DNA of 64,000 bases from Gammaproteobacteria bacterium. GTDB taxonomy: Bacteria; Pseudomonadota; Gammaproteobacteria; SZUA-140. The stretch lies in assembly GCA_016712635.1 (NCBI GenBank), contig JADJQS010000006.1, forward strand, positions 511,216 through 575,215, given 5' to 3'. A program made the position numbers and the translations under genes. How positions within the stretch are numbered: position 1 is the first letter of the stretch; every line of letters begins with the position of its first letter. Below the pieces are notes generated by a model, which saw nothing but the letters and a program-made list of their open reading frames with translations, ran no database searches and was not told the DNA's origin. Below, in pieces: positions 19,354 to 36,744 of the stretch.

Positions 19354-21120
19354 ATGAGCCTTGAAGCCTGGTTTACCGTTGCCGTCATCGGCCTCTGCCT
19401 CGGGCTGCTGATACACGGGCGCACGGCGCCGGACATCGTCATGATGGCCGGCCTGACCCTTCTGCTGGTGTCCGGCATACTGACGCCAACGGAAGCTCTT
19501 TCCGGTTTGTCGAATGAGGGCATGGTCACGGTGGGCATCATGTTCGTCATCGTGACCGGCCTGCGCGATACCGGCGCCATCGCCTGGATCGTGCAGCACC
19601 TGCTCGGTGTGCCGCGCTCGACCGCCCACGCCCAGATGCGCCTGATGACCCCGGTCGCCGCCATGAGCGCCTTCCTCAACAACACTCCGGTGGTCGCGAT
19701 GATGATCCCGGCGGTGCAGGACTGGGCGCGCCGCCACCGGATCTCCGTCTCCAAGCTGATGATCCCGCTGAGCTATGCCACCATCGCCGGCGGCACCTGT
19801 ACCCTGATCGGCACCAGCACGAATCTCGTTGTGAACGGCATGCTGATCAAGGAGACCGGCCACGGACTCAAGATGTTCGAGCTCGCCTGGGTGGGTATCC
19901 CGCTGGTGGTGGTGGTCTTCCTCGGCATCGTCCTGCTTAGCCGCTGGCTGCTGCCAGAGCGCAAGCCGGCCATCAGCCAGTTCGAGGAATCGCGCGGCTA
20001 TACCGTGGAGATGATGGTGGACTCCAGCGGGCCGCTGGTCGGCAAGACAGTGGAGCAGGCCGGCCTGCGCCACCTGCCGGGTCTGTATCTGATCGAGATC
20101 GACCGCGGCGAGCAGGTGCTGCCGGCCGTTTCGCCGCTCGAGCGGCTGCAGGCGAACGACCGGCTGATCTTCGCCGGGGCGGTGGAATCGGTCATCGACC
20201 TGCAGAAGATCCACGGCCTCTCCCCGGCCACCGACCAGATCTTCAAGCTGGGCATGCCACGGCCGGAACGCTGCCTGATCGAGGCGGTGATCTCCAACAG
20301 CGCCCCGCTGGTGGGCAAGAGCATCCGCGAGGGGCGCTTCCGCACCCTCTACAACGCGGCGGTCATCGCCGTCTCGCGCAGCGGCGAGCAGATCAAGGGC
20401 AAGATCGGCGACATCGTGCTGCGTCCGGGCGACACCCTGCTGCTGGAAGGGCACCCGTCCTTTGTTGAGCAGCAGCGCAATTCGCGTGACTTCTATCTGG
20501 TGAGCCGTCTGGCGGGCTCGACCCCGCTCAATCATGACAAGGCGCCGATCGCACTCGCGATCATGACCGCCATGGTGGCCGCCGCCGCCTTCGGCTGGCT
20601 CAGCATGCTGCAGGCGGCGCTGCTGGCCGCCGGCGCGATGTTGATTACCCGCTGTACGCGCGGCAGCAATGCGCGCGCAGCGGTGGACTGGCAGATCCTG
20701 ATCGTGATCGCCGCCTCGCTCGGCATCGGCAAGGCGCTGGAGACCACGGGTGCGGCGCAGGCAATGGCTGACGGTTTCCTGTCCTTCACCGGGGCAGGCC
20801 CGCTGATGGCGCTCTTCGTGGTCTACGTCATGACTGTGCTGTTCACCGAGATCGTGACCAACAATACCGCTGCTGCACTGATGTTTCCCATCGCGCTTGC
20901 GCTCAGCAAATCACTCGATGTGAGCTACATGCCCTTCATCATCACCATCACGGTGGCGGCTTCGATGAGCTTCGCCACTCCGATCGGGTACCAGACCAAC
21001 CTGATGGTGCTGGGTCCGGGCGGTTATCGCTTCACCGACTACATGAAACTTGGTATCCCGCTGACCGTCATGGTCGGGATACTGATTATGCTGATTGTCC
21101 CGCGGGTGTGGGCGTTCTGA
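19354..21120 (+). CDS. SLC13/DASS-family anion permease with two central TrkA-C (RCK_C) domains. Candidate sulfate or dicarboxylate transporter.
   Basis: 588 aa. N- and C-terminal multi-TM halves around two repeated roughly 70-aa TrkA-C-like segments (GKTVEQAGLRHLPGLYLIEIDRGEQ.. and GKSIREGRFRTLYNAAVIAVSRSGEQ..). Confidence 0.7.
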   Translation: MSLEAWFTVAVIGLCLGLLIHGRTAPDIVMMAGLTLLLVSGILTPTEALSGLSNEGMVTVGIMFVIVTGLRDTGAIAWIVQHLLGVPRSTAHAQMRLMTPVAAMSAFLNNTPVVAMMIPAVQDWARRHRISVSKLMIPLSYATIAGGTCTLIGTSTNLVVNGMLIKETGHGLKMFELAWVGIPLVVVVFLGIVLLSRWLLPERKPAISQFEESRGYTVEMMVDSSGPLVGKTVEQAGLRHLPGLYLIEIDRGEQVLPAVSPLERLQANDRLIFAGAVESVIDLQKIHGLSPATDQIFKLGMPRPERCLIEAVISNSAPLVGKSIREGRFRTLYNAAVIAVSRSGEQIKGKIGDIVLRPGDTLLLEGHPSFVEQQRNSRDFYLVSRLAGSTPLNHDKAPIALAIMTAMVAAAAFGWLSMLQAALLAAGAMLITRCTRGSNARAAVDWQILIVIAASLGIGKALETTGAAQAMADGFLSFTGAGPLMALFVVYVMTVLFTEIVTNNTAAALMFPIALALSKSLDVSYMPFIITITVAASMSFATPIGYQTNLMVLGPGGYRFTDYMKLGIPLTVMVGILIMLIVPRVWAF

Positions 21121-21149
21121 GCGCTGGGTAGTAAGTATTGAGGCAGTGT

Positions 21150-21967
21150 ATGAAACTGAGCGCCATATTATTCAGGCGACAGAAAACAGATCTTTATGAG
21201 TGGCGGCGCATAAAAGCAGGTAGCCGAAATTTTATATAGCGTTTCTGCTATGGCTGATATCGTTGAGAAAATGCTCACACAAGTGCTGCATGGACTATCT
21301 GGTCTTCTGGAGAGTCAATTAATAAAGGTATTCACATGTTGATAGGTGGCCGTTCTGAGACCTTATTTCTGGTCTGCCTGAAGAAACTGCTCTGTGACTC
21401 AAAGAATATACTGGATATTGGAACGCCAGAAAGATTTGCCAAGGAATTACGGCGTTACGAGAGCTTGTTTCTGGAAAGAACTATCTCGCAGCAGGATTTA
21501 ATCCAGAAATGAACAAGGGTCAGTACAATTGCGACTTACATCAAGATATAGAAATGATGACATTTGATGATTCATCATTTGATGCGGTCATTTGCCTAGA
21601 GGTACTCGAGCATGTCGCAAATCCATTCCAAGCCGTCCATGAAATAAAGCGCGTGTTGATAAACGGCGGAAAACTTCTGCTAACGGTTCCATTTCTCAGC
21701 CAGTATCATGGAAAAAGCGCTTTATCGCATGATCATTTAAATTATCCCGATTATTGGCGTTTTACGCATGAGGGTTTACATAAGCTGTTTCATGATTTCA
21801 CGAATCTTGAAGTGTTACCCCTGGATGGACCGATCGAATTCAGACTAAAGCAATTTTATCTCACTCGCTGGATAAATTACCCTGCTATTCGGAGAATCAT
21901 AGATCTAATAGACAAACCGGAGCGCGGCAAGGCCACAACGAGACATCTTGTTTACGGCATCAAATAA
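21150..21967 (+). pseudogene. Class I SAM-dependent methyltransferase broken into several short frames. Only the C-terminal 152-aa ORF (21509-21967) is intact.
   Basis: The C-terminal ORF has the post-motif-I region (FDAVICLEVLEHVANP..GGKLLLTVP). The N-terminal ILDIGT-containing piece is in another frame and ends in a stop at about 21507. Confidence 0.45.
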
Positions 21968-21972
21968 ACAAG

Positions 21973-23098
21973 ATGAAGATTCTAGTAGTGACGGGAATAT
22001 TCCCTCCGGATCATGGTGGTCCGGCGAGCTATGTGCCGGAGATTGCACAGGCGTTGTCTGTGAAACATACAATAGTGTCAGTAATAACCTTGAGTGACTT
22101 GTTGAACCACAGCGATGAAAACTATACGTTTCCGATCTTGAGAATTTTACGGAAAGCTAACAAGATTTCTCACATTTAGAATAGTTAATACCATAAGAAA
22201 ATATTCCAAAGAGGCAGATGTCATATTCGTCAATGGACTGATCTTCGAAAGCATCGTTGCATGCAAATTATTCTCAAGGAAACCGTTAGCCATAAAAATC
22301 GTTGGTGACCTGATTTGGGAAAAGGCGAAACTATCATCACCTGACACGGTATCCATCGATGAATTCCAGAGAAATGTGGCGGGTATAAAGTGGAAAATTT
22401 TGAAATGGATCTACAATAAGCTGATCAATCAGTGCGATGCCATTATCGTACCAAGCCTATATCTATGCAGGATTGTTAAAGGTTGGGGAATCGATACTGC
22501 AAAAATTAACGTCGTATACAACTCCGTGAAACCACAGTCTCTTCCATATGCTAATTATGGAGAAGGCGGCAATGTCGATTGCGTTACAGTGGCGAGATTG
22601 GTGCCTTGGAAGGGAATTAGTGAGCTTATAGATGTCGTTTGTGAAAACAAGTGGACTTTAAATGTTATCGGTGACGGCCCCCTAAAGGAGGATCTTGTAT
22701 GCAGAGCGCTCAAGCACAGTAATAATTCTGTACAATTTCTTGGTTATGTACCTCGTGATCAGGTGCATTCTGAAATTTCCAAAGCCAAGATATTCATCCT
22801 TAACTCGACATATGAGGGATTGCCACACATTGTTCTCGAGGCGAAACAAGCCGGAGTAGCCGTTATTGCAACCGCTGTTGGTGGAACACCTGAGACAATA
22901 ACAGATGGCGTAGATGGATATCTTATTCCCCCGGGGGACAATGCCATGCTAAGAGAGAAAATCGGATATTTGCTATCCAACAATGATAAGCGCACTCAGG
23001 TAGCATCGAAAGGTAGAGAACAGGTTTTGCATAACTTTTCATTTGAAACCATGGCTACCAAAACTGAGAAAATCCTTGAAAATACCCTGAATAGGTAA
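21973..23098 (+). pseudogene. GT4-family glycosyltransferase interrupted by a single frameshift near 22140-22180 (ORFs 21973-22179 and 22376-23098 plus an unlisted bridging segment).
   Basis: The N-terminal piece is KILVVTGIFPPDHGGPASYV. The C-terminal piece has EGLPHIVLEAKQAGVAVIATAVGGTPE. The bridging segment IVNTIRKYSKEADVIFVNG.. reads in the frame of the second ORF. Confidence 0.55.
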
Positions 23099-23106
23099 AC
23101 CGGCTG

Positions 23107-24306
23107 GTGCATATCATGGGTCATCCGATAAATATCCTCCTTCTCAGCAAAGATCCCACCTTATTCGAGCAAAATGATGCTGTCATCGGTGACACAAGAA
23201 AGCGACACATCGCCTACTCGAATATACTGCAATCAAGGTACCCCGGAAGCCAAATAAAAGTCATAACCTACACAAAGAGAACTTCGCTACTTCAGCATGA
23301 GAAAATCAATCAATCTCTCTCGATTTTCGGGACCGCCTCTGCTCACCGCATCACCTATTTGGCCGGTGTGATAAGAATGCTGCCTAAAACGCTGGAGGAT
23401 GGATGGCGGCCAGATATCGTCACTGCTCAGACCCCATGGGAAGAAGGCATCGTCGGATACGTGATATCAAGAATATTCAATGCTAAGTTCATACTGCAAA
23501 TCCATTTCGATTTGTTTTCTGAGCACTGGCGAAAAGAAAACAGATTTAACCTGTGGCGTAACTTGATTGCGCGCGCATTGATCAAACGATCTGATGCTGT
23601 TCGAGTAGTTTCAGAATTCCAAAAACACCAACTGGTGGATTGCCTCGGAAAACCATCCGGCACGATCCGGGTTATACCTGTAGGGGTGAATTTTCAGCCA
23701 TTAGATGGTGAAAAGTCTGCATTCAAACGAAAGATAGCTATTTCATTGGAGGCTAAAAAAGTTGTCTTGTTTGTTGGTAAATTTTATGCACCAAAAAATC
23801 TCCAACTATGGATTGATGTTGCGCAGCTTATTAGCCGTGATAACCCAGACGTAATGTTTGTCATGGCAGGCAACGGGCCCATGTTTGGTGAGATAAGGGA
23901 GGCGGTCATCAACCGTGGACTATCAGATAGATTTATTTTCTTGGGTTATGTCAAGCATGAGGAATTGCCCGGAATATATGCGGCCGCCGATGTCTTTCTA
24001 CTTACCTCATATTATGAGGGATTTGGCAGAGTCGTCCTTGAGGCCTATCTAGCCAAAATCCCTGTTGTGAGTACCAAATGCGCCGGAACACTCGACCTCA
24101 TCGAATCAGGTGTCACTGGAATATTAGCTCCTGTTGGTGATGCACAAACGTTAGCAGATGGTGTGATAAACCTGCTCTCCGCTGATGAACTGAGGATGTC
24201 TTATGGGACTAAGGGACATGCGAGAGTGAATGTGAAATATGGTTTTGCTAACTTATCAAATAAGTTAGTCGACTTCTGGGGAAGTGTTTGCGATGAGTCA
24301 ACCTGA
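23107..24306 (+). CDS. GT4-family glycosyltransferase.
   Basis: 399 aa. EGFGRVVLEAYLAKIPVVSTKCAGTLDLIESGVTG motif. Confidence 0.8.
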   Translation: MHIMGHPINILLLSKDPTLFEQNDAVIGDTRKRHIAYSNILQSRYPGSQIKVITYTKRTSLLQHEKINQSLSIFGTASAHRITYLAGVIRMLPKTLEDGWRPDIVTAQTPWEEGIVGYVISRIFNAKFILQIHFDLFSEHWRKENRFNLWRNLIARALIKRSDAVRVVSEFQKHQLVDCLGKPSGTIRVIPVGVNFQPLDGEKSAFKRKIAISLEAKKVVLFVGKFYAPKNLQLWIDVAQLISRDNPDVMFVMAGNGPMFGEIREAVINRGLSDRFIFLGYVKHEELPGIYAAADVFLLTSYYEGFGRVVLEAYLAKIPVVSTKCAGTLDLIESGVTGILAPVGDAQTLADGVINLLSADELRMSYGTKGHARVNVKYGFANLSNKLVDFWGSVCDEST

Positions 24307-25150
24307 TTTTATCGGTATAGGAGCGCAAAAATCAGGTACTTCATGGATTTATGCGTGCCTACATGTACATCCTCAGGTTTGTATACCGCGTAAGGAAATA
24401 CATTTTTTCAGCAGAGAGCGAAACTGGTCTAAAGGATATGATTGGTATGCAGGAAACTTTGACGGCTGTCATGCGGGGCAGGTAATCGGTGAATTCTCAA
24501 CTTCATACTTGGCGGATGAGTACACGCCTGCGAGGATCCATAATAAATTTCCTGATGTGAAACTGGTCGTGTCTCTACGCAATCCAATTGACAGAGCCTA
24601 TTCCAATTATATTAACGATATCAAAACAGGTATTGTGTCCAGTTCTACGGACTTTCTGGATGCGTTGGATAGCCATCCTGAATACATGAACCAAGGTCAG
24701 TACGCGCGCCAAGTAAATCGTTACCTAGATTATTTTAAGCCAGCTCAATTGCTGATATTAATCTACGAGGATAGTTTGATCGATCCCGGGGACTATATAA
24801 AAAAAATATACAGATTTCTCAATATTGACCATGAATTTATACCTGAATTTATTCGTACAAAGATAAATCCTGCCAGGATTCCACGTCATGTCTGGATTGA
24901 TTCCGGGATAAGGGCTGTCTCCAGTTACCTGAGATCAAACGGGTTTCGTACTCTATTCTGGCAAATAAAAAAATCAGGCCTCGCGGAAAGAATTCGGACA
25001 CTGAATACAAGAATGGATATCAGACGCGCTGATGTGATAGACACTCAAACTAGACATTATTTGTATGAGAAATATGATATCCAGTCAGAAATTTCTGCTA
25101 TTTCAAAAATAATTGGAAGAGATCTTATCGAGTGGCGCATTCAAACATAA
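24293..25150 (+). CDS. Carbohydrate sulfotransferase (PAPS-dependent sulfotransferase domain).
   Basis: 5'-PSB motif IGIGAQKSGTSW and 3'-PB motif VVSLRNPIDRAYSNY. The start is probably the second ATG (MSQPDF) overlapping the upstream GT stop. Confidence 0.8.
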   Translation: MSQPDFIGIGAQKSGTSWIYACLHVHPQVCIPRKEIHFFSRERNWSKGYDWYAGNFDGCHAGQVIGEFSTSYLADEYTPARIHNKFPDVKLVVSLRNPIDRAYSNYINDIKTGIVSSSTDFLDALDSHPEYMNQGQYARQVNRYLDYFKPAQLLILIYEDSLIDPGDYIKKIYRFLNIDHEFIPEFIRTKINPARIPRHVWIDSGIRAVSSYLRSNGFRTLFWQIKKSGLAERIRTLNTRMDIRRADVIDTQTRHYLYEKYDIQSEISAISKIIGRDLIEWRIQT

Positions 25151-26204
25151 CAGTGATTTGCCAGGTTGTTGACGAGCATGATCCTATTAATGCAACAGCT
25201 GTCAGATGGATTCGTGTTCTGTCACAAAAGAATCAGGTAGGGAAAGTAACTGTCCTGGCATTAAAAGTCGGTGAATATAACTTGCCTGATAATACGAGAG
25301 TGTTCTCGTTTAGAGGAAGAAATCGCATTTCTACTTTGATTAAGTTCTATTCCCTGATAATAAAAGGAGTGATGGTAAATAAAACGGATTATTATTTTAT
25401 CTATCAGGGTGGCCCATATCCGTTGCTACTTTTACCATTTAAGCTTTTGGTGGTAAAAACGTATACCATTGGAAAGCACATCCACATATTACCTTTATGA
25501 TGAAATTATACGCGCGTTACTGCGACACCGTTGTATTTACTTCAACAACCAATGCATTTCCCATGCAATTACCCAATCTCAGAGTTATTGGGCAGGGCGT
25601 TGATACAGAAAAATTTCGGGTGTTGGGAAAGGAAAGAAATAAAGATCTTGTCATTGTTGGCAGGATTGCCCCGGTCAAGCGCTTGGAAAGCATAATTTTC
25701 ATATTGACGCATTTGAATCTCAAGTACGGAATAGCTCCGAAAGTAGATTTATATGGTCCGATATCAGGACAGGATAAGAAATATAAGGAGCACATAGACC
25801 ATCTAATCTGTGAGCAGAAATTGAATGATCAGATTATTTTTCATGGGCCAGTTAGGCAGGATGCCCTCCCGGAGATATTTAATACCCACAAGCTCCTTGT
25901 CAACTTTTCTGATACTGCATTGGATAGAGTTGTCGTCGAAGCTATGGCCTGTGGATTGCCAGTGTTCTCGACGAATAACTGCGTTAGAGAGATCATCCCC
26001 GACGCTTATCATGATATTCTGACTTGTGTTGACCAACACGAAAACCATGCGCTGCTTGCTGAATTGATCTACTCACTGCTTTTGCTGCCTGATGCCATCA
26101 GAACCCATATCGGCAGGGACCTAAGAGAAATTATATTACATCATCATAGTGATATAACCCTGTTCGACAGAATGTTAGCCGAAATCGGAAACTATGAAAA
26201 ATAA
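25132..26204 (+). pseudogene. GT4-family glycosyltransferase split over two frames (25132-25500 and 25497-26204).
   Basis: The N-domain piece ends ..GKHIHILPL*. The C-domain piece (VVEAMACGLPVFSTNN) starts in a different frame. Together about 357 aa, the size of a whole GT4. Confidence 0.5.
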
Positions 26205-26994
26205 ATTCTCGATAAAAATTGGCGTCAGAAACTCATTCATCATTGCCAATGGAATGTATAAAAACATCAGAAACTCACTGCCTGATAAGCGGATTGTCGC
26301 AATTCACGATATCAATGACTCGATCAGATTCCGAGATAAAATGCATTGGCTGCGCGAAACATATGACATTCTTAGTTTGGGCGATTTGCTCGAAACTAGC
26401 ATAGGCAACAAAACACAGATCGCCATAACATTTGATGACGGCTATCTGTCATGGCGTGATAATGTTATTCCGGTGCTGGTGGATCTCAATATTCCTGCCA
26501 CTTTTTTTATTTGCTCTGGTTTTGTTGGTCTTGATGAAATTGATGCAAGAAAGTTTGCTGTTAATTGCTTCAGGAGAAAACAGAAGCTGCTTCCACTTCA
26601 AGCAGAGCACATCAGATCGATATCTGATCATAAATTGTTCGAGATAGGTGGACACACGGCGCATCACCTGGATCTCGGAAAAGAGTATCCCACAGAAATT
26701 CTGATAGATGAAATTATAAGAGACCGTGAACTATTAGAGGATTGGACAGGCGATGATGTACGATGGTTCGCATATCCATTTGGAGGAAGAATTAATGTCT
26801 GTAATCAGACAAAAGAATTTGTCAGAAATACTGGTTATAGCGCTGCGTTTACTATCATTCCTAGATCAGCGAACGAGATCGAGGATTTCTATGAAATAGG
26901 GAGGGATAGCCTGGACATCTATGCATCAGATCTTTTATGGAGAAACTGGCTTAACGGCGGTTACGACATGATTAAGAAAACAAGGATTTCGTAA
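26194..26994 (+). CDS. Polysaccharide deacetylase (NodB homology, CE4 family).
   Basis: ITFDDGY, FFICSGFVG, GGHTAHH motifs. Confidence 0.8.
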   Translation: MKNKFSIKIGVRNSFIIANGMYKNIRNSLPDKRIVAIHDINDSIRFRDKMHWLRETYDILSLGDLLETSIGNKTQIAITFDDGYLSWRDNVIPVLVDLNIPATFFICSGFVGLDEIDARKFAVNCFRRKQKLLPLQAEHIRSISDHKLFEIGGHTAHHLDLGKEYPTEILIDEIIRDRELLEDWTGDDVRWFAYPFGGRINVCNQTKEFVRNTGYSAAFTIIPRSANEIEDFYEIGRDSLDIYASDLLWRNWLNGGYDMIKKTRIS

Positions 26995-27602
26995 TGAACA
27001 AGTTTGAATATGTGAGGAATATTATCCTTTCTGAACCAGTGAATAACAAAAGTCTGCTCGATGTCGGATGCAGAGGATGTGAATTAAAGTCTTATGTCGG
27101 AGATGTGGTTGCATACAAAGGTGTGGACCTATTCCAAAATCCATCGAATAGCGTTGACTACGTGTTGGATGTAGAAAATGGACTTCCCATGGAAAATAGT
27201 TCAAGTGACTATGTCGTAGCCTTGGATTTGGTTGAACATCTTAATGATTTTCAAGGCGGCTTAGAAGAATTACTGAGGGTGGCGCGAGAGAAACTCATCG
27301 TAATGCTTCCAAATATGGCTCACTGGGTTTTCAGGAAGGAATTCCTTTTTCATGGAAGGATCGGTGCAAAATATGATCTTTCATATGGAATGGGAAAAGA
27401 CCGACATCGCTGGTTCACTGTGTTGCCACAGACGGATGAATATATAAAAAGGTTTTGTGACGAAAATAATCTCGAGTTACAGGTCATCTGGTTTAATGGA
27501 GGAAGAAAGAAAGAACTATTCTATCGAGTAACGAAATTCCTGGGTTTTCCGCCATCAATAGGCGTGTGGGCATCACTTTATATAATGAAAAAAATGTCAT
27601 AA
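26994..27602 (+). CDS. Class I SAM-dependent methyltransferase.
   Basis: LLDVGCRGCE motif I, VVALDLVEHL. 202 aa. Confidence 0.7.
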   Translation: MNKFEYVRNIILSEPVNNKSLLDVGCRGCELKSYVGDVVAYKGVDLFQNPSNSVDYVLDVENGLPMENSSSDYVVALDLVEHLNDFQGGLEELLRVAREKLIVMLPNMAHWVFRKEFLFHGRIGAKYDLSYGMGKDRHRWFTVLPQTDEYIKRFCDENNLELQVIWFNGGRKKELFYRVTKFLGFPPSIGVWASLYIMKKMS

Positions 27603-27796
27603 ATATATCGTGCGTACACCATCATGCATGATGGAAACGAGAGCAGAGTTTCGTCGTAGAATTGAGTCGTTATCTGCGTCTAAGCACACCTTTACTATTC
27701 ATGGATTGTCTGTGTCGCATTAATCGATGCATTTACCCATCGCATATGGTCACTGGTCTCTCTCTTTTGATTCTTACTGGAAAATAAGAGAATCAA

Positions 27797-29059
27797 ATGC
27801 GTAAGATAGTATCAGATGTTGGGTACATGGGGTTCTCACAACTCCTTGTCGCACTGTCGCAGATAGCGCTCCAAGTCTATGTGGTCAGGACCACGACAGT
27901 TTATGAATATGGTGAGTACATAGGCAGTCTAGTCATAGTGACGTTAGTTGAAGCAATTTTTGTCGCAAGAGGCGGTGAACTGGCTTTGCGATATGTCGGC
28001 ACGCACTGGAATAAGAGTGATTTCATCACTGCTCGGCAATACGCAACAGCGATAATACGCATCGATAAATATGTAAACTGGTTACTTTATATCTTGCTCG
28101 TTACTTTGGCATTTGCGACCTATGAGGTGCTGAATTTAAATCTATATTACGTGATATTTCTTTCGCTTGTTATTCCAGCTCAGGTAGGTTACGGAGTGTA
28201 TAAAAGTCTATTCATAATTTCATCTAGACTCAGGGGGCAATCTGTATTTGAAATAATCTTCGCCGTCGTGCAGATATCTACAGGAGCCATTGGCGTTTAT
28301 TTATTCAGCATCCCTGGTTTGATTGCATCAGTTATTGGAACAGCTATGGTGAAGACTGTTTTAGCTAGGGTTATGACGGAAAGTTGGTGGCCTGATAACG
28401 TCAAAGGTCTGGATTCCCTTTCCACAAATAATAATATCAATATAACAACCTGGTGGAGCGACAGTATACATTCTATTATGCGAAATTCATTTTTCTCTGG
28501 GTCTAATCAAATAGACATAATCTTGCTCAATATATTCAGAGGTGCAGAAACAGTAGCTTTGTATAAAGTCGCAAAATCGTTATCTGCAATTCCTATAAAA
28601 ATTGCCGCCCCTGTCTGGGCGGCCTTACGTCCTCGAATCATGAAATCATGGAACAACGGCGACAGGGCGAGATTAGTCAAGATAATATTGACACCTTCAT
28701 TATCCATGCTGGCAGTTCTTCCCGTTATGCTGCTGCCTGCTTCGCTGTATGGTGATAAGTTTATTGCCATTATATACGGGCCTGACTATGCGTCCGCGAT
28801 AGACTCTATTCTTGTATTGCTCGTCGGTGTATGGATCTTTAATGTGACTACAGGTTGGTTCAGGTTCTGGATATTAATAATTAAGGATAGATTAGCAAGT
28901 ACAAATATATCGGCAATCCAGTTTTTTATGCTGCTAGTTCTAGGTCTGCTGTACGGAAAGGAAACAATTGTTTCAATGTCCGAGGTTGTGAGCGTAACCA
29001 TGATTGTCGTCAGCGTGATGTGCTGGTTTGAATTATTCAGAAAACTAAAAACGCTGTGA
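27797..29059 (+). CDS. wzx: Wzx-type O-unit flippase (MOP / polysaccharide biosynthesis protein family).
   Basis: 420 aa, about 12 predicted TM segments, hydrophobic throughout. Position within a GT cluster. Confidence 0.65.
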   Translation: MRKIVSDVGYMGFSQLLVALSQIALQVYVVRTTTVYEYGEYIGSLVIVTLVEAIFVARGGELALRYVGTHWNKSDFITARQYATAIIRIDKYVNWLLYILLVTLAFATYEVLNLNLYYVIFLSLVIPAQVGYGVYKSLFIISSRLRGQSVFEIIFAVVQISTGAIGVYLFSIPGLIASVIGTAMVKTVLARVMTESWWPDNVKGLDSLSTNNNINITTWWSDSIHSIMRNSFFSGSNQIDIILLNIFRGAETVALYKVAKSLSAIPIKIAAPVWAALRPRIMKSWNNGDRARLVKIILTPSLSMLAVLPVMLLPASLYGDKFIAIIYGPDYASAIDSILVLLVGVWIFNVTTGWFRFWILIIKDRLASTNISAIQFFMLLVLGLLYGKETIVSMSEVVSVTMIVVSVMCWFELFRKLKTL

Positions 29060-29184
29060 ACTCTCGTATTCAATGGCGAGAGAAGCTGCTATCGGCCATT
29101 GTTGGGTATCTAGAGGTCAATCAATCATGAGAAATCTGGCCATTAGTAACCCATTGTTTGTCTCATTAGTTCTCCCTCGTAGTA

Positions 29185-30315
29185 TTGATTGGTAATGTCC
29201 TTCTCAGCATTTCGAATACTGTATCCATGTTAAATATTATGTTCATTGTGCTAGCACATCTACTTGTCATTTACTCATTATTTAATAACGGTGTGCAACA
29301 GCGTGACTGGCTGAATCCAATAAACATAATTCTTCTGATTGGAATGGTGCGATTCAGTCTGCCTCTGCTTCTACTTCAATTTGGATCTCCAAGTATCGAG
29401 ATGTTCCAAAAGATGAATATCGGGCAAGGTGAGAACTGGCGTCATGCAAATATTCTTGCACTAGTCGGGTTGCTGGGCGTCGCTGCCGGTTGGAACATAA
29501 CGATTAGACCTTGGAGAAAAGCATGTCCCCATAGGCGGGAACTACCAAAGAGCGTTGCTTATTTGGCTGTGACAGGGATGCTAGCAGGCGCAATATTTTT
29601 GTCAGTTTTTATAGAAAGTAATTCTACACTCGAGGAAGCCATATTGACAGGCAGCTTCAGAGGTACTGATATACAGGCAGGCACCGGCAAGTATTTCCAT
29701 CTAGGCTTAATGTTAATTTCATGTAGCGTAATCCTCTCTTCGTATCTCATTAAACGAGGAAATGTATCCTATATGGTCGCACTCCTACCCGTGCTCATCG
29801 CCACGATTTTTTATTTCATTCTCGGTGGCAGGACCAGAGCGATTACACCGTTAATAGCTGGACTACTTGTAATTTGGTATGAAAGAGAAAATTCAACATT
29901 TACAGCAAAGAATACGTTTGTTTTGTTTATTCTTTTTCTTGGTTTGCTCATGTTTTATAGCGGGTCAGTGCTTTATCGTGCACGACTCGGATTGGAAGGG
30001 TTTGCTCATGGCCTGTCTTTTATAGGTCTTGTGCAATATCTGTCTACAGCGATATGGATGGAAATAGGTCAGTTGCATGCATTGGCCGGGTCTCTTCTAG
30101 TTGGGCCTGGCGTACTGGGAGGGTTGACATTTACCAAATTGCTTTGGCCTATCAGTGAGTTTCTCAATATACCCGGTAATAGTACAGGCATATATCTTGC
30201 GGAGACGCTTGTTTATCACAGCATACGCAGTCGGTGTATTTTTCCTGTCGAAGCTGCTAGGGTCACTGATAAAAAAATCATAATGATGAAGCAGAATATG
30301 ATTGTCAGAAAATAA
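29185..30315 (+). CDS. Wzy-like O-antigen polymerase (multi-TM membrane protein).
   Basis: 376 aa, highly hydrophobic with a larger loop region. Adjacent to wzx. No firm motif, so the assignment is by context. Confidence 0.5.
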   Translation: MIGNVLLSISNTVSMLNIMFIVLAHLLVIYSLFNNGVQQRDWLNPINIILLIGMVRFSLPLLLLQFGSPSIEMFQKMNIGQGENWRHANILALVGLLGVAAGWNITIRPWRKACPHRRELPKSVAYLAVTGMLAGAIFLSVFIESNSTLEEAILTGSFRGTDIQAGTGKYFHLGLMLISCSVILSSYLIKRGNVSYMVALLPVLIATIFYFILGGRTRAITPLIAGLLVIWYERENSTFTAKNTFVLFILFLGLLMFYSGSVLYRARLGLEGFAHGLSFIGLVQYLSTAIWMEIGQLHALAGSLLVGPGVLGGLTFTKLLWPISEFLNIPGNSTGIYLAETLVYHSIRSRCIFPVEAARVTDKKIIMMKQNMIVRK

Positions 30316-30349
30316 AATGGCTTCCAAATGACCAGTAAGGTTCGCCACG

Positions 30350-31303
30350 TTATGTGAGAATATCGTCATCGCTATTCTTCAAATATTCGAATGATTTCCT
30401 AATGCCATCCTCTAACTTGATAAGTTCTCTTTTTAACATCGATCTCATTATCGAGTTATCAGGCTTTCTTCGCGACATATCGCCTTCCTTCAATGGAGGG
30501 TAGTGTACAATCCTTGATCTTGAGTTTGTGATTTTCAAAACGAGCTTGGCCAGTTCTAAAATGGTGATTTCATTATCACTGCCGACATTCACCACGTCGT
30601 TTATACACAAATCGTTGGTGATAACGGTTTCGGTAAAATCAAGATTATCGTCAATGTAGCAGAATGTTCGTGTTTGTGAGCCATCACCATAAATGATCAA
30701 ATCCTCATTTCTTGACGCCCAATAGATAAATCTTGAAACGACAAAATCCTTGCTTTGAAGAGGCCCATATGTGTTGAAGAATCTGAAGATTGTGTACTTC
30801 AATCCATATTCTTTCTCATAAGTGCGGCAAAACGCCTCGCCGATATTCTTAACGATCGCATAAGGGAGCCTGGAATTCAGCGGTGTGGTTGCTTCTCTTT
30901 GTGGAATCTCAACCGGCTCACCATAGACTTCAGAGGAAGATGAGTATATGACACGTTCTACTCCCGTATTTTTTGCCAAGTCCAGTATATTTTTAATTCC
31001 TTCTATATCGTTTAAGACTAGTTTGGGGTTGGTCAATGTGCGCTGGACACCCACTACTGCGGCATAATGAAAAATTAAATCGAAATTGCCAGAAATAACC
31101 ACTGGAGCGATGTCGTTAAAATCATTGACATTGGCCTTGATAAATTTCCAATTATTATATGTACGGTCTGGCAATTTACCGGCCATGCCCGTAGAGAGAT
31201 CGTCGACGATAACGACCTTGTATTCTTGGTTTTGTACAAGGCGTCTGGCCAAGCTTCCGCCAATGTTACCCGCGCCACCGGTTATTAGAATGTTTTTTCT
31301 CAT
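30350..31303 (-). CDS. NAD-dependent epimerase/dehydratase (extended SDR; UDP-sugar 4-epimerase / UDP-glucuronate decarboxylase-like).
   Basis: ILITGGAGNIGGSLARRL Rossmann motif and a YxxxK-type catalytic region (YAIVKNIGE). 317 aa. Confidence 0.75.
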   Translation of the reverse strand: MRKNILITGGAGNIGGSLARRLVQNQEYKVVIVDDLSTGMAGKLPDRTYNNWKFIKANVNDFNDIAPVVISGNFDLIFHYAAVVGVQRTLTNPKLVLNDIEGIKNILDLAKNTGVERVIYSSSSEVYGEPVEIPQREATTPLNSRLPYAIVKNIGEAFCRTYEKEYGLKYTIFRFFNTYGPLQSKDFVVSRFIYWASRNEDLIIYGDGSQTRTFCYIDDNLDFTETVITNDLCINDVVNVGSDNEITILELAKLVLKITNSRSRIVHYPPLKEGDMSRRKPDNSIMRSMLKRELIKLEDGIRKSFEYLKNSDDDILT

Positions 31304-31467
31304 AATGTTTCCTGTTAATAGTTTATGGTTTTTCTCTTAACTCCAGTATGTACTTGTAGACTTTCATTGTCTCGGTGTACATCTTTTCGCGCTGAATTTT
31401 CCCGTCACAAGCTCTTTTCCCTTGCTACCGTATCCGAAGCGGATCGCCTGGCTTCCCGCCAGAATAC

Positions 31468-32457
31468 TCAGCTTCCTGCGAACGATTCAGGATCGTTGGG
31501 TGGTATCAACATCCCGCTCTCGTTATCAGCGACAATTTCAGGTATTGCGCTCACATTGGTTGCGATAACTGGCTTTCCTGAGGACATAGCTTCAAGTAGT
31601 ACTAGACCAAATCCCTCGGTAACTGAGGTTAGGGCAAATATATCGAATGCATTAATAACCAGAGGAATGTCTTGACGAAAGCCAGCCCAGATCACATGAT
31701 CCTTGAGTCCAAGCTTCTCAGAGTGACTTCTTAGCTTTTCGTGAAGCGGACCTGATCCCACGATTACTAGTTTTGTCTTGGGGGTAGTCACCTGATTTAT
31801 GAATTTGGCATAACCGGTTAGCATGACGTCGATTGCTTTGGCTGGCACCAAGCGTGCTACGCTTCCAATTAATAATGTCGGGCCGTTGCCCCCCCACTCA
31901 GCGCGGAGATTTTCTACTTTTTCTCGATCAACATTCTGGAAGCAGTGAGGATTAAGACCATAATGTACTACAGTGATTCGCCGGTTGGTTGAGGCTGGCC
32001 AGCGCTTTGAGTAGTATCGTTTGACTGAATCCGAGATCGCGATGATCCCGTCTGCACGACTGACCACCCACCTTTCAAGCATGTTTGCTCCCGGACCACC
32101 ATAAAAACGAGATTCGTTATGCCTCGAGATCAGGAATGGCAACTGCGGGGATTTCAATAATGCAATGCGAGCGTATAATTCGGCGGGCGCCAAATGAGCA
32201 TGAACGATATGAGGAGCGAAACTTGCAATCGCATTTTTGAGTCTCCAAAGAGGCCCGAGTTCCCCGTACTGCGATAATCCCAGAGGAAAGACGTGCACCC
32301 CAAGACTCTCTAGTTCTGCTTTCCAATAGCCATCACCCTTTAGATATGCGCAAGCGACTTCGCAGCCAAAATTCCTGATTTGTCCTTCGATCAAATCTCG
32401 TAGATGATTCTCTGCGCCGCCGCGGTTTATCGTTGTAATAATATGCAATATTCTCAT
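31468..32457 (-). CDS. GT4-family glycosyltransferase.
   Basis: MRILHIITTINRGGAENHL N-terminus and EGFGLVLLEAMSSGKPVIATNVSAIPEIV C-terminal motif. Confidence 0.8.
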   Translation of the reverse strand: MRILHIITTINRGGAENHLRDLIEGQIRNFGCEVACAYLKGDGYWKAELESLGVHVFPLGLSQYGELGPLWRLKNAIASFAPHIVHAHLAPAELYARIALLKSPQLPFLISRHNESRFYGGPGANMLERWVVSRADGIIAISDSVKRYYSKRWPASTNRRITVVHYGLNPHCFQNVDREKVENLRAEWGGNGPTLLIGSVARLVPAKAIDVMLTGYAKFINQVTTPKTKLVIVGSGPLHEKLRSHSEKLGLKDHVIWAGFRQDIPLVINAFDIFALTSVTEGFGLVLLEAMSSGKPVIATNVSAIPEIVADNESGMLIPPNDPESFAGS

Positions 32458-32551
32458 GATAAATAGCCTTATCTCCTGTTTCTATATTAGTATAAATCAT
32501 AAGACGATGTCATTGTGCTGATCAAGATTTGCACGGCAACGAGATAAGAAC

Positions 32552-33397
32552 ATGCAGATTCCTTGGTGGGCGAAACTCTGTGCAAAAATGGCTCTATCTA
32601 GATTGCCATTTGGGTATTCCGTCTGGCAGAAACTTGGTCTGTTCCGGCATGGCAATATGGATGCTGGTGAGTATGCAATCCGGATTTTTCAAAGCCATAT
32701 GGAGAAATCGTGTTTTCAACAACGGCTTGCTGGAAAGACAATTCTAGAACTAGGTCCGGGTGACAGTCTCGCGACCGCAATAATTGCCGCAGGATATGGC
32801 GCGCGGTCTATACTCATTGATAGTGGTCGGTTTATACGTAAGGATATCAACTCCTATGTTGAATTAGTGGGCGCGCTTGCCAAGAGAAACTTGCCTCACA
32901 TAGACATCTCATGCTGTCGTGATGTAGATGAAATTCTTGAACTGTGCAATTCCAGGTATATGACAGAGGGGTTGGACAGCCTCAGAATGATCGAAAAGGA
33001 ATCAGTAGACCTAATTTTCTCCCAAGCCGTGCTTGAACATATAAGAAGATACGATTTTCTGGAGACAATGAGAGAATGCCGTAGAATCCTCCGGGAAGGC
33101 GGGGTCTGTTCGCACCAAGTTGATCTTCGCGATCATCTGGGTGGATCCCTGAATAATCTGCGCTTCAGTGAACGGGTCTGGGAGTCTGCTTTTTTTTCAA
33201 AGTCAGGATTCTATACCAACCGGATCCAATACAGCGAAATGATTGGGCTATTTGCGCAGGCTGGTTTTAAAGTTGAAGTAACCGATATCTGTCGTTGGGA
33301 CACACCGCCAACTCGGAGAAGCCGGCTTTCTACGGAGTTCATCAGAATACCGGATGAAGAACTGTGTATATCTATGTTCGACGTATTGCTACGCTAA
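32552..33397 (+). CDS. Class I SAM-dependent methyltransferase.
   Basis: ILELGPGDS motif I, DLIFSQAVLEHI. Confidence 0.7.
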   Translation: MQIPWWAKLCAKMALSRLPFGYSVWQKLGLFRHGNMDAGEYAIRIFQSHMEKSCFQQRLAGKTILELGPGDSLATAIIAAGYGARSILIDSGRFIRKDINSYVELVGALAKRNLPHIDISCCRDVDEILELCNSRYMTEGLDSLRMIEKESVDLIFSQAVLEHIRRYDFLETMRECRRILREGGVCSHQVDLRDHLGGSLNNLRFSERVWESAFFSKSGFYTNRIQYSEMIGLFAQAGFKVEVTDICRWDTPPTRRSRLSTEFIRIPDEELCISMFDVLLR

Positions 33398-34543
33398 CTA
33401 TGATTCTCCGTATATGAAAGCAAACAGAGAAAAAAAACTTCTGTACTATATAACAGAAGACTGGTATTTCGTTTCTCATCGACTTCCATTGGCGATTTCT
33501 GCAAAGAATGCTGGATACGATGTTTGCATCGTGACGCGTGTGAGAAACTACGGAAATATTATACGTTCCTCTGGATTAAAACTCATTCCTTTTGAAAATT
33601 CACGAAGCAGTATAAATCCTCTGAGAGAACTTCTGACCCTGTTCAGGTTGATTGCATTGTTTATGCGCGAAAAGCCGGATATCGTTCACAACGTTGCCAT
33701 AAAACCCGTTCTGTACGGTGGAATAGCCGCACGCTTGGTTAAGACACCACAAGTAGTCAATGCGCTCGCGGGCATGGGTTGATATTCGCATCTAGCACCG
33801 GCTTGGCCCGCTGGATTAAGCCTGCAGCTCGCCAAATGCTCAGGTTCGTGCTTACCTCTGGAACCGTACTAGTACAGAATCAAGATGACGCAGCATTTCT
33901 AACCCAGATAGGTGTGCCTCGGGCGAATATACGACGTATCGCTGGTGCCGGGGTTGATCTGACACTGTTCCACGCAAGCCCCGAGAAGACTGGATTGATT
34001 ACGGTTGTTCTACCAGCACGATTGCTCTGGGATAAAGGCGTGGGGGAGTTTGTCGAGGCTGCGCGCATCATCAGAAAGCAGGGAATAAACGCGCATTTTG
34101 CGCTTGCAGGAGAATCCGACCATGCCAATCCCGCATCGGTCTCACCGAAGACTATTGCTGAGTGGGTTTTGGAAGGAGTTGTTGACCATCTCGGGTGGGT
34201 TGAAAACATGCCGTCTCTATTTGCTCAGAGCCATATAGTATGCTTGCCTTCGTATTATGGTGAAGGAATCCCGAAATCGCTGATTGAGGCTGCAGCGTCT
34301 GGACGGCCTATCGTCACGACCGATATGCCAGGATGTCGTGAGATCGTCCGGCATAATGAAAATGGATTTCTGGTCCCCCCCCGCAATGCTAAAGCACTCG
34401 CGAAAGCGCTGGTGCGCCTAATAGAAGACCCCGTGCTTCGACAACAGATGGGGGCGCAGAGTCGCATTCGCGCCGAGAAAGAGTACGGAGTGGAAACAGT
34501 CAATCGGCAGACGCTAGCACTCTATGAGGAGGCTCTGAGTTGA
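33354..34543 (+). pseudogene. WbuB-like GT4 glycosyltransferase interrupted by one frameshift at about 33775-33782 (ORFs 33354-33782 and 33779-34543).
   Basis: ..NALAGMG* in one frame continues as IFASSTGLARW.. in the next, matching the conserved GLGY(I)F block of this GT subfamily. The C-terminus has EGIPKSLIEAAASGRPIVTTDMPGCREIV. Confidence 0.55.
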
Positions 34544-35505
34544 GGGTGTTAGTTACCGGTGCTACTGGGTTTGTCGGTTCTTCATTGGTAGACCAGCTGG
34601 TTCGTGATGGGATTCACGATGTCAGGGTTGCATTGAGGAGAGACAGGCCTAGTTTGAGCGATCAAGTTGAGCATGTCATCGTCGGTGAAGTCGCCGGGGA
34701 AACAGTTTGGCGACAGGCGCTGCGCGGTATCGATACAGTGATTCATCTCGCCGCCCGGGTACACGTCATGACAGACAGCGTAGCGAATTCTTCCGCAGAA
34801 TATCACCGCGTAAATGTTGATGGCACCCTTAACCTCGTTCGCCAGGCAGTAGATGCTGACGTCAAGCGTATTATTTATCTGAGCTCAATCAAGGTGAACG
34901 GGGAAGAGACATTGGCAGGCCAGCCGTACTATGCAGATGATCAACCTTCGCCAGCAGGATCATATGCTGTATCCAAATATCGAGCAGAGGAAGGGATCCG
35001 TCGATTAATTTCGGGGGCTGATATGAGTGCTGTAATAATTCGCCCTACTTTGGTATACGGAGCTGGAGTGAAGGGAAATTTTCTCAACATGATGCACTGG
35101 CTATCCCGCGGTATACCTATGCCTTTAGGATCGATTCACAATAGCCGCAGCCTTGTAGCGCTCGATAATTTGGTAGATCTAATTATCAAATGTATTGAGC
35201 ATCCTGCAGCTGCAGATCAAGTATTCCTCGCTGGAGATGGCGAGGACTTATCCACTACAGAACTTCTTCGACGGCTTGGGGGTTTTCTTGGCAAACCCGC
35301 CCGTCTCGTGCCGTTTCCACATGCGGTCTTGAACATGATTGCTCGCGTATCCGGAAGACGTGATGTTGCACAACGATTGCTGACCTCGCTACAGATCGAT
35401 ATCAGGAAAAACTGGGAAATCCTCGGCTGGAAACCGCCGGTCACTCTGAATCAGGGTTTGGAAACTGTCACACGCTGGTACTTAAATGAATCACGAAGTT
35501 ACTGA
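34540..35505 (+). CDS. NAD-dependent epimerase/dehydratase (WbpV/WbpK-like UDP-sugar epimerase or reductase).
   Basis: VLVTGATGFVGSSLVDQL Rossmann, YAVSKYRAE catalytic YxxxK. Position before wbpL-wbpM as in Pseudomonas O-antigen loci. Confidence 0.75.
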   Translation: MRVLVTGATGFVGSSLVDQLVRDGIHDVRVALRRDRPSLSDQVEHVIVGEVAGETVWRQALRGIDTVIHLAARVHVMTDSVANSSAEYHRVNVDGTLNLVRQAVDADVKRIIYLSSIKVNGEETLAGQPYYADDQPSPAGSYAVSKYRAEEGIRRLISGADMSAVIIRPTLVYGAGVKGNFLNMMHWLSRGIPMPLGSIHNSRSLVALDNLVDLIIKCIEHPAAADQVFLAGDGEDLSTTELLRRLGGFLGKPARLVPFPHAVLNMIARVSGRRDVAQRLLTSLQIDIRKNWEILGWKPPVTLNQGLETVTRWYLNESRSY

Positions 35506-35559
35506 GATAATGGCGAAAATAATCTTCAGTTGCATGCCCACTATTCAAGAGACATGTGA

Positions 35560-36744
35560 ATGATCATAGGCGTAATTCTCATCACGTTTTGTACGGCAGG
35601 ACTTGTAACTTATCTTCTGACACATGCTAGCGGTCGATTTCAGATAATAGATTACCCTAATAACCGCTCTCTTCATAGCACACCTATCCTACGTACTGGC
35701 GGACTGGCGATCTGGGCTGGGATGATCACTGGAACCGCAACTGTAGTCCTGATGCTTGAATGGAAGTACGAAATCGCATGGATTGCATGTGCGGCGACTG
35801 TCGTCGGACTTGTCTCGTTCTTCGATGACCGCGCACACGTCCCGGCATATATCAGATTAGCTATCCATCTCATCGCCGCTGCATTGTTATTGAGCGGACA
35901 GTTGGATCTGACATCGATTGAAATTCCTGGTATCAGCACCGAATTGGCCCTCGGAACAGGAATGTTGATTATTGCGCTGTTCATCACCTGGAATATCAAT
36001 CTGTACAACTTTATGGATGGAATGGACGGCATTGCAGGCGGCATGACGATAGCCGGTTTTGTAACTCTGGGGCTGCTCGGTCATCTCGCGGGCGATGACT
36101 ATTACGCGGTGATCTGCTGGGTAATCGCCGCCGCTTCTGCAGGTTTCCTGGTATGGAACTTCCCGCCTGCGCGGATATTCATGGGCGATGTCGGATCATC
36201 CACCTTGGGTCTGCTGGTTGCCGCGATGTCTCTATGGGCGGATCGGGCCGATCTTTTCCCGCTTTGGCTGTCCGTCCTCATCTTTTCTCCTTTTGTGGTT
36301 GACGCCACCCTGACGCTCGCGCGCCGGACCCTGAAAGGCGAACGCATCTGGGAGGCGCATCGCGATCATTACTACCAGCGCCTGGTCCGGGCGGGATGGA
36401 GCCATCGCCGTACTGTCTTGTGGGAATATGGCCTGATGGTGATATGCAGTGCCTGCGCACTGCTGGCCTTTCACGCGCCCGTGGTGATGCAATGGTCGAT
36501 CCTGGGGGCGATGGCGTGCGTTTATATTGCAGCGATAGTTGCGGTGCGCCGTATCGAGGTGCGTAGAGCGATCGGGCAGGGTTCAGAAGTTCCTCGTAGC
36601 TCATACGTGGAGGATTTTTGGATGGAAACCCTACTGGGCAATCTATCGTGTTCTACTGAAGTATTAGTCCGAATATCCAATATCCCTTCGTTTCAGATTC
36701 AAATTAACATCCGGGTTGTATTGCAGTACAATACGCGCCACTGA
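35560..36744 (+). CDS. wbpL: Undecaprenyl-phosphate HexNAc-1-phosphate transferase (WbpL/WecA, MraY-like GT family). The C-terminal end of the model is uncertain.
   Basis: Multi-TM. NLYNFMDGMDGIAGG and FMGDVGSSTLG motifs. Confidence 0.8.
   Translation: MIIGVILITFCTAGLVTYLLTHASGRFQIIDYPNNRSLHSTPILRTGGLAIWAGMITGTATVVLMLEWKYEIAWIACAATVVGLVSFFDDRAHVPAYIRLAIHLIAAALLLSGQLDLTSIEIPGISTELALGTGMLIIALFITWNINLYNFMDGMDGIAGGMTIAGFVTLGLLGHLAGDDYYAVICWVIAAASAGFLVWNFPPARIFMGDVGSSTLGLLVAAMSLWADRADLFPLWLSVLIFSPFVVDATLTLARRTLKGERIWEAHRDHYYQRLVRAGWSHRRTVLWEYGLMVICSACALLAFHAPVVMQWSILGAMACVYIAAIVAVRRIEVRRAIGQGSEVPRSSYVEDFWMETLLGNLSCSTEVLVRISNIPSFQIQINIRVVLQYNTRH

Follow-up and report, generated by a model that had tools for sequence, protein, structure and literature searches.

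Small frameshifting indels in the strain-variable O-antigen island of a Gammaproteobacteria metagenome assembly are probably consensus errors

In the window, the whole stretch of 64,000 nt analysed here, glycosyltransferase and methyltransferase genes of a low-GC block are interrupted by frameshifts, which raises the question of whether these genes are decaying, are being switched on and off, or are intact in the organism and broken only in the assembly. The original prediction offered these three readings without choosing between them. Based on the comparisons presented here, the small indels of the block are probably consensus or polishing errors in a strain-variable and probably low-coverage island, and the broken genes are probably intact in the organism; decay fits the data badly and phase variation is rejected.

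The window belongs to the metagenome-assembled genome (MAG) of an uncultured bacterium, deposited as 'Gammaproteobacteria bacterium' (contig of 584,161 bp, locus tag IPK65_; exact protein matches to MBK8163326, …340, …346, and …348), the nearest relatives of which are Steroidobacteraceae. In the composition profile, the GC content is 0.39-0.54 in the island versus 0.57-0.70 in the flanks, and the island is bounded by the stop codon of an SLC13 permease (21120) and a WbpM-like gene (36798; Table 1). Homology between the window and two related assemblies, L009 and L005, is lost at 21120-21122, the point at which L009, a short-read assembly, has another low-GC island of its own, made up of tidy and intact ORFs. 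The locus is hypervariable between related strains. The low-GC block represents an O-antigen locus of the Wzx/Wzy type, variable between strains, with a putative flippase; since the 420 aa protein at 27797-29059 has no Pfam match even at E<=1, its Wzx role is assigned from position only. The Wzz encoded at 11606-12706 matches PF02706 (E=2.8e-9, 37.6 bits, cut-off 25.5).

Table 1. Genes of the O-antigen island and its upstream flank. Lesion positions are from the alignment of the window with a near-identical sister.
Feature	Position	Strand	State, lesion, or evidence
wzz, manC, gmd, fcl, gmhB, gmhA, cysC (APS kinase), SLC13/TrkA_C permease	11606..21120	+	Intact, core-like DNA
Low-GC glycan/O-antigen island	21130..36750	+	Composition profile, Pfam; 16 genes
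Class I SAM methyltransferase	21336..21967	+	Split; GG at 21473-21474 vs sister GGG; 210 aa repaired
GT4 glycosyltransferase 1	21973..23098	+	Split; 2 bases (CG/GC) lost, 22170-22172; 375 aa repaired
GT4 glycosyltransferase 2	23107..24306	+	Pfam; intact, sister copy identical
Sulfotransferase	24284..25150	+	PF00685, E=5.6e-21; intact
GT4 glycosyltransferase 3	25132..26204	+	Split; T4 at 25445-25448 vs sister T5; 357 aa repaired
Polysaccharide deacetylase	26194-26994	+	Pfam; intact
Second methyltransferase	26994-27602	+	Pfam; intact
Putative Wzx flippase, 420 aa hydrophobic membrane protein	27797..29059	+	Intact; role from position only
Wzy-like O-antigen polymerase	29073..30283	+	Broken twice; +C at 29174; net 233 nt loss at 30213/30214
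NAD-dependent epimerase/dehydratase	30350..31303	-	Pfam; intact
Minus-strand GT4	31323..32457	-	Broken near 3′ end; two 1 bp deletions; 378 aa repaired
Third methyltransferase	32552..33397	+	Pfam; intact
GT4 glycosyltransferase 4	33414..34543	+	Split; GG>G, one G lost after 33780; 376 aa repaired
WbpK-like epimerase	34540-35505	+	Pfam
WbpL/WecA-family initiating transferase	35560-36744	+	PF00953, E=1e-36; -1 at 36589

Comparison with a sister strain had been suggested as a check. Two contigs (L001 and L003) from the Logan k-mer assembly of SRR31776074, short-read data from another sample and strain, cover 17144-31635 and 31922-36642 of the window with 99.4-99.8 % identity, and in these all of the island genes are intact. 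Contigs from a second run (L002 and L004) are concordant with them in the overlap and span no lesion site. Putting back the sister bases alone restores the methyltransferase, GT4 glycosyltransferases 1, 3, and 4, and the minus-strand GT4 to ORFs of the repaired lengths in Table 1, free of internal stops. The broken alleles are present in the MAG only, being absent from every independent assembly found; a search for further assemblies of the strain represented by the window found none.

Each of the four splits originally reported is present in the island, with adjacent ORFs in different frames carrying the N- and C-terminal halves identified by Pfam and with a lesion relative to the sister. The junction sites were placed correctly, although the numbers given for them mark stop codons or overlaps between frames, and the lesions themselves lie 0-35 nt away; a possible second site further upstream in the methyltransferase is absent, this gene having a single indel relative to the sister. 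The 2 bp loss in GT4 glycosyltransferase 1 is not within any repeat, and the lesion at 33780 falls in the GMGW block of GT4 glycosyltransferase 4, the repaired copy of which has the motif ALAGMGWIF. The count of four was too low, as wzy and the minus-strand GT4 are also broken. In wzy, CC has become CCC at 29174, with one C extra in the window, and at 30213/30214 a single T stands where the sister has 234 nt, and the site is not flanked by a repeat. This deletion takes residues ~381-458, including the sole stretch through which the 480 aa Wzy of the sister matches PF01901 (28.6 bits, cut-off 24.2), and which is absent from the window copy. The minus-strand GT4 has lost a G at 31386/31387 and has TT in place of TTT at 31472. 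The WbpL-like protein is 394 aa in the window versus 346 aa in the sister because the deletion at 36589 lies three codons ahead of the normal stop; a further -1 at 36615 is past that stop.

As had been proposed, the high-GC part of the window is free of such breaks. All 42 of the core ORFs tested span their NCBIfam or Pfam models end to end, except for the first, which is truncated by the edge of the window, and where the window and the sister have core DNA in common (4 kb), indels are confined to one intergenic spacer. There are eight lesions in 15.6 kb versus none in 48.4 kb, a clustering that is not due to chance under a uniform rate, for which the probability is (15.6/64)^8, about 1e-5.

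In other bacteria, genes for glycosyltransferases and methyltransferases are textbook examples of phase variation, and four of the lesions are changes in the length of a mononucleotide run, as would be expected if frameshifts at short repeats turned these genes on and off reversibly and thereby altered the glycan decoration. However, there is no long homopolymer at the junctions, in agreement with the original prediction: the runs at the four reported junctions are 3, 0, 5, and 2 nt, and across all of the lesions they span 1-5 nt. Two lesions fall outside any run, another is the 233 bp deletion, and no tandem repeats were found at the junctions. The homopolymers of 6-8 nt in the island, 16 out of 16, are the same length in the sister, nine of these being the runs of 7-8 nt in which variation would be expected. 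Phase variation is therefore very improbable and was rejected, because the runs at the lesions are short and those of 7-8 nt are invariant. Likewise, the halves of each gene are adjacent with an overlap of a few codons, an arrangement in which programmed ribosomal frameshifting or transcriptional slippage could join them. The shift directions are mixed (-1, -2, and +1), however, and neither a slippery heptamer nor an A/T run of at least 9 nt is present at any junction. The frameshift is not conserved, since in the near-identical sister a single frame codes for each of these proteins; with the sister genes unshifted, programmed frameshifting was also rejected, as extremely improbable.

In the case of genuine decay, O-antigen synthesis would have been lost, for example under phage pressure, and the linked genes would then have gained inactivating indels, and wzy a deletion, leaving a rough or semi-rough LPS. 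Such decay would account for lesions limited to one functional unit while the 42 core genes are intact. The 233 bp deletion in wzy and the 2 bp non-repeat deletion look more like mutations than like errors of the consensus, the long homopolymers are correct, contrary to what crude sequencing error would produce, and natural O-antigen clusters with multiple lesions exist, as in Yersinia pestis. The divergence from the sister does not fit this explanation. Substitutions in the island are 25 synonymous, seven nonsynonymous, and five intergenic, some of them downstream of the breaks. Purifying selection has therefore acted for essentially all of the divergence, in the broken genes as well, and relaxed selection is not seen. 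Against at most seven nonsynonymous substitutions there are 10 indel events, for which decay would need a ratio of indels to substitutions near or above 1; this ratio is roughly 0.05-0.3 in mutation-accumulation and pseudogene studies. With a ratio of 0.1 the binomial probability of the indel count is 6e-6, and with 0.25 it is 4e-3. In addition, synonymous divergence from the sister is about six times lower in the island than in the adjacent core, indicating that the island was acquired recently and has had little time to decay, and real slippage should prefer the longest runs, none of which are affected. Genuine decay is thus unlikely. It is rather improbable that the lesions are real in the stronger sense that at least six genes of a probably sulfated O-antigen island, obtained recently by horizontal transfer, have been inactivated through an unusually indel-rich process with almost no substitutions; if they were, the window would show surface glycans being lost very rapidly by an uncultured activated-sludge Steroidobacteraceae population within a natural community.

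The wzy deletion, atypical of consensus errors, may reflect true variation between strains or misassembly at this site. It is unlike the other lesions in that a single T takes the place of 234 nt, no repeat flanks it, and the sole PF01901 match is lost, whereas the small indels have a read-error profile, being deletion-biased and in low-complexity tracts. It is possible, if somewhat unlikely, that the deletion marks a real polymerase-negative, semi-rough variant while the 1-2 bp indels are assembly errors. At low depth, however, such a deletion is indistinguishable from local misassembly, and because the 233 nt change is out of frame, a clean in-frame wzy variant needs a further error or mutation.

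For the small indels, consensus or polishing error remains the preferred explanation. Deletions make up eight of the nine, and six of the nine are in all-purine or all-pyrimidine tracts of at least 6 nt (P about 0.003). Deletions are the commonest Nanopore error, and purine-purine or pyrimidine-pyrimidine signals are hard to distinguish (PMC8486125). Consensus indels from R9.4.1 reads that break gene calls are well documented, with bins below 40x requiring polishing (PMC9262707). Racon with short reads introduced errors in 100 out of 100 test genomes (PMC8812927), and at low depth false positives are added by most polishers.

A Nanopore origin of the window is very probable, judging from the accession range, the locus-tag style, and the 584 kb contig. 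Two proteins from the same accession block as the window MAG, MBK8278324 and MBK9947797, are from MAGs of Singleton et al. (2021). In that activated-sludge project, R9.4.1 reads were assembled with CANU and polished with Racon, then twice with medaka and once more with Racon using Illumina reads, and coverage is about 6-70x among 18 of the MAGs listed (Singleton et al., 2021). Very probably, the window MAG was built from error-prone R9.4.1 reads with one round of short-read polishing by Racon. If the island is carried by part of the population, its depth in both long and short reads would be below that of the shared core, and the small frameshifting indels would be consensus errors that were left uncorrected or were introduced by the polisher. 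The core would have been cleaned up and the island not, because the island is expected at less depth. This coverage assumption is required for the confinement of errors to the island, since low-GC DNA is not more error-prone in Nanopore sequencing (PMC8486125).

Other features sit less easily with assembly errors. A plain, unpolished R9.4.1 consensus would fail first at homopolymers of 6-8 nt, all of which are correct here. Lesions within one functional unit are also expected from real decay, and a net 233 bp deletion and a non-repeat 2 bp deletion are unusual for consensus errors.

As a locus, the island resembles the wbpK-wbpL-wbpM loci of Pseudomonas aeruginosa, being a low-GC, strain-variable block in a high-GC genome, located downstream of rpsA-lapA-lapB, ending with an epimerase, a WecA/WbpL-family transferase, and a WbpM-like dehydratase, and accompanied by wzz and wzy. 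Unlike in P. aeruginosa, the lineage is Steroidobacteraceae-like, genes for GDP-fucose, heptose, an APS kinase, and an SLC13 permease lie between wzz and the island, and the island has a sulfotransferase, three methyltransferases, and a putative flippase without a Pfam family. Frameshifts in surface-glycan genes are shared with the phase-variable glycosyltransferases of Neisseria, Haemophilus, and Campylobacter, but the lesions of the window have no tract of at least 7 nt or tandem repeat and its long tracts are invariant. In Y. pestis, the O-antigen cluster differs from that of Y. pseudotuberculosis O:1b by several frameshifts and a deletion. As in the window, these lesions fall within a single O-antigen cluster, the rest of which is >99 % identical to that of an intact relative; in the window, however, the substitutions are overwhelmingly synonymous, nonsynonymous changes do not outnumber the indels, and the lesions are in a metagenome consensus rather than an isolate. 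The remaining comparison is with the residual indels of Nanopore R9.4.1 assemblies, recognized as truncated gene calls of the IDEEL type (PMC9262707; PMC8812927). Although the window differs from these in that long homopolymers, the usual site of such errors, are spared, in that the errors cluster in a 15.6 kb island instead of along the contig, and in that one is a 233 bp deletion, it shares with them deletion-biased, single-base indels that split genes, intact genes in near-identical short-read DNA, and a source that is a MAG with a 584 kb contig.

Three-frame translation of the window showed the four split genes named in the original prediction, and in Pfam the halves of each are complementary parts of a methyltransferase or GT4 glycosyltransferase architecture. 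An exact-protein look-up with the island deacetylase and one methyltransferase retrieved near-identical short-read contigs from the Logan assembly of SRR31776074, L001 (14.7 kb, spanning window 17144-31635) and L003 (4.7 kb, spanning 31922-36642), and two short contigs of SRR31776073 (L002 and L004). In L001 and L003, here called the sister, identity to the window is 99.4-99.8 % and all of the island genes are intact. The lesions were defined by pairwise alignment of window and sister. All four breaks are present, with the predicted junctions at most 35 nt from the true lesions; the second lesion suspected in the methyltransferase is absent, and the count of four is too low, as wzy and the minus-strand GT4 gene are also broken. 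This confirms the observation and raises the number of disrupted genes to six, together with a harmless change at the end of the WbpL-like gene.

Features of the low-GC island and its flanks, with the changes in the window relative to the sister
Feature	Position	Change in window	Location	Basis
Phosphoglycerate dehydrogenase-like ORF (truncated by window edge), pheA, DAHP synthase, tyrA, aroA, cmk			upstream core-like DNA, first set	
rpsA, lapA, lapB, pyrF, wzz, manC, gmd, fcl			upstream core-like DNA, next	
gmhB, gmhA, cysC, SLC13/TrkA_C permease			upstream core-like DNA, nearest island	
SAM methyltransferases (n=3)			island	Pfam/NCBIfam
Split methyltransferase		GGG>GG at 21473	island	
GT4 glycosyltransferases (n=5, one on minus strand)			island	Pfam/NCBIfam
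GT4-1	21973-23098	2 bases lost at 22170-22172	island	
GT4-2	23107-24306		island	
Sulfotransferase	24284-25150		island	Pfam/NCBIfam
GT4-3	25132-26204	T5>T4 at 25445	island	
Polysaccharide deacetylase			island	Pfam/NCBIfam
Putative flippase (420-aa hydrophobic protein)	27797-29059		island	usual flippase position
Wzy-like polymerase (wzy)		CC>CCC at 29174; one T in place of sister's 234 nt (net 233-bp deletion) at 30213/30214	island	Pfam/NCBIfam
GT4, minus strand	31323-32457	1 base lost at each of 31386 and 31472	island	
GT4-4	33414-34543	GG>G at 33780	island	
NAD-dependent epimerases (n=2)			island	Pfam/NCBIfam
WecA/WbpL-family initiating transferase (WbpL-like gene)		1 base lost at each of 36589 and 36615, end of gene	island	Pfam/NCBIfam
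WbpM-like dehydratase, galU			3′ of island	

When the sister bases alone are put back, ORFs free of internal stops are obtained, with lengths of 210, 375, 357, 376, and 378 aa. The same proteins are encoded in one frame in the sister, and programmed frameshifting is therefore rejected. The net 233-bp deletion in wzy takes out the sole stretch matching PF01901, and no direct repeats of more than 5 nt were found flanking it. In the WbpL-like ORF (36589-36744 region), a 1-bp difference three codons 5′ of the normal stop gives 394 aa in the window versus 346 aa in the sister; the extra 48-residue tail is probably not real.

The composition profile has a GC content of 0.39-0.54 across approximately 21130-36750, inside DNA of 0.57-0.70, and its Pfam and NCBIfam matches mark this block as a surface-glycan cluster. 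It is a Wzx/Wzy-type O-antigen locus, in which the Wzx flippase is putative: the 420-aa protein gave no Pfam match with the threshold relaxed to E≤1, and forms a one-member cluster at 90 % in the protein collection. Directly 5′ of the island, which bears a sulfotransferase, lie cysC (APS kinase) and the SLC13/TrkA_C anion permease (18649-21120), a combination suggesting that PAPS is supplied for sulfation of an O-antigen or exopolysaccharide. The automatic gene call at 1473-2120 of L001 (window 18616-19263, minus) has the strand wrong; the ORF on the plus strand encodes a full-length adenylyl-sulfate kinase (E=5e-95).

The absence of breaks from the high-GC part of the window, also noted originally, holds for the 42 ORFs tested outside the island (the first ORF, RpsA, LapB, ManC, Gmd, Fcl, RNase E, PlsX, FabH/D/G/F, PabB, MltG, Tmk, HolB, and others through to the hybrid kinase), which match family models end to end, except for the first, truncated by the window edge. 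Within the 4 kb of core shared by the window and L001, only two indels are present, both in the spacer at 19285-19332. This spacer (19268-19340) contains a hairpin, GGGGACAGAT…ATCTGTCCCC, with one base different from the sister, and a 7-bp unit (CCTCACA/CCTAACA) of which the window has one copy more. Lesions restricted to a single functional unit are precisely what genuine decay of the O-antigen island would predict.

The most telling evidence on error versus mutation is the substitution pattern. Between window and sister, the core flank differs almost exclusively at third positions, by synonymous changes (38 synonymous, 7 nonsynonymous); of the seven nonsynonymous changes, three lie within the spurious minus-strand call over cysC and occupy third codon positions of that gene. 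The island has 25 synonymous, 7 nonsynonymous, and 5 intergenic substitutions, several of which lie within and downstream of the breaks; its genes, the 'broken' ones among them, have therefore evolved under purifying selection during essentially all of the divergence. Neutral build-up after inactivation should yield several-fold more substitutions than indels, most of them nonsynonymous, whereas the island has 10 indel events against 7 nonsynonymous substitutions. The usual indel:substitution ratio in mutation-accumulation and pseudogene studies is approximately 0.05-0.3; for 10 of 17 events (indels and nonsynonymous changes combined) to be indels, the binomial probability is 6e-6, 4e-3, and 0.11 at ratios of 0.1, 0.25, and 0.5, respectively. 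Synonymous divergence is also approximately sixfold lower in the island (25 in ~14 kb) than in the adjacent core (~41 in ~3.5 kb), and the island therefore seems to have been exchanged recently by horizontal transfer between lineages with approximately 1.2 % core difference, leaving even less time for decay. Genuine decay, which would be very recent, is accordingly considered unlikely.

Two clusters of substitutions were seen within the island. Eight differences from the sister fall in 148 bp at 21972-22119 (5 synonymous, 2 nonsynonymous, 1 intergenic), where the rest of the island differs by approximately 0.1 %; this cluster, immediately 5′ of the lesion at 22170, probably reflects recombination over a small patch. 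Five synonymous substitutions in 52 bp at 36327-36378, close to the 3′ end of the WbpL-like gene, probably mark where recombination of the shared island stops on its right-hand side.

The window proteins are NCBI MBK8163326, …340, …341, …346, …348, and …351 by exact look-up, labelled as MAG proteins of a Gammaproteobacteria bacterium, with locus tag IPK65_, on a 584,161-bp contig. By the permease gene, the closest genomes are a Steroidobacteraceae MAG (96 % aa) and then other gammaproteobacterial MAGs; MBK8278324 and MBK9947797 are proteins of two MAGs of Singleton et al. (2021). Based on the accession block, locus-tag style, and the 584,161-bp contig, the source MAG is very likely from that project, which used R9.4.1 Nanopore reads assembled with CANU; polishing was by Racon, medaka (two rounds), and Racon with Illumina reads (one round), and coverage was approximately 6-70x for 18 of the tabulated MAGs (Singleton et al., 2021). 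No other assembly of the window's own strain is on record in exact-protein look-ups with the first ORF, RpsA, GmhA, the WbpK-like epimerase, GalU, and Gmd, and searches of JGI metagenomes with putative-flippase peptide patterns and an exact 32-mer beside junction 4 gave no usable match to further sister copies.

Eight of the nine small indels are deletions, and six of the nine fall within tracts of 6 nt or more made up solely of purines or solely of pyrimidines, versus a background of 20 % for such tracts of 5 nt or more (P ~0.003). Nanopore sequencing errs most often by deletion, and signals inside the purine or pyrimidine class are poorly separable (PMC8486125). Frameshifting consensus indels are documented in R9.4.1 assemblies, which need short-read polishing below ~40x (PMC9262707, from the same laboratory as Singleton et al., 2021). 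Short-read Racon put errors into 100 out of 100 benchmark genomes (PMC8812927), and most polishers add false positives when depth is low. Among the three explanations originally offered, assembly indel error is therefore favoured over decay, the small indels probably being mistakes made when a strain-variable O-antigen island of a long-read MAG was assembled or polished. Against phase variation, which is rejected, the lesions affect runs of only 1-5 nt, and all 16 island homopolymers of 6-8 nt agree with the sister. These intact runs cut both ways, as raw R9.4.1 consensus would be expected to break at such runs before others and real slippage mutation should likewise favour them. The wzy deletion, having no flanking repeat and removing the PF01901 stretch, is unlike a consensus error and may be a real strain difference, independent of the rest, or a local misassembly. 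Racon 500-bp window boundaries were rejected as a cause, the positions modulo 500 (472, 170, 444, 174, 213, 386, 472, and 280) having no common residue, and no common motif, such as a methylation site, was evident by eye at the lesions.

Homology with two relatives, L009 and L005, stops at the permease stop codon. From the same stop, L009 (JBFXCU010000035.1, Steroidobacteraceae MAG) carries at 2395-12391 a wholly different low-GC (0.39-0.44) block of nine tidy, intact ORFs. The locus is hypervariable, and this site is a hotspot of glycan-island replacement. In a mixed natural population the island may be present in only some cells; its long-read and short-read depth would then be lower than that of the common core, giving a poorer consensus and less effective polishing. 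Low GC per se is not the cause, since Nanopore errors are lower in low-GC DNA (PMC8486125).

If the lesions are artefacts, the Wzx/Wzy O-antigen locus formed by the island is an ordinary one and probably functional, and strain-variable islands of long-read MAGs can bear clusters of false pseudogenes beside a clean-looking core; rough LPS, serotype loss, or phase variation deduced from such MAGs then needs read-level support. The feature is of low interest unless the lesions are genuine, in which case it would document very recent multi-gene O-antigen loss in an uncultured bacterium from wastewater. Such a loss would be moderately interesting for phage-host ecology but would not be a new kind of system.
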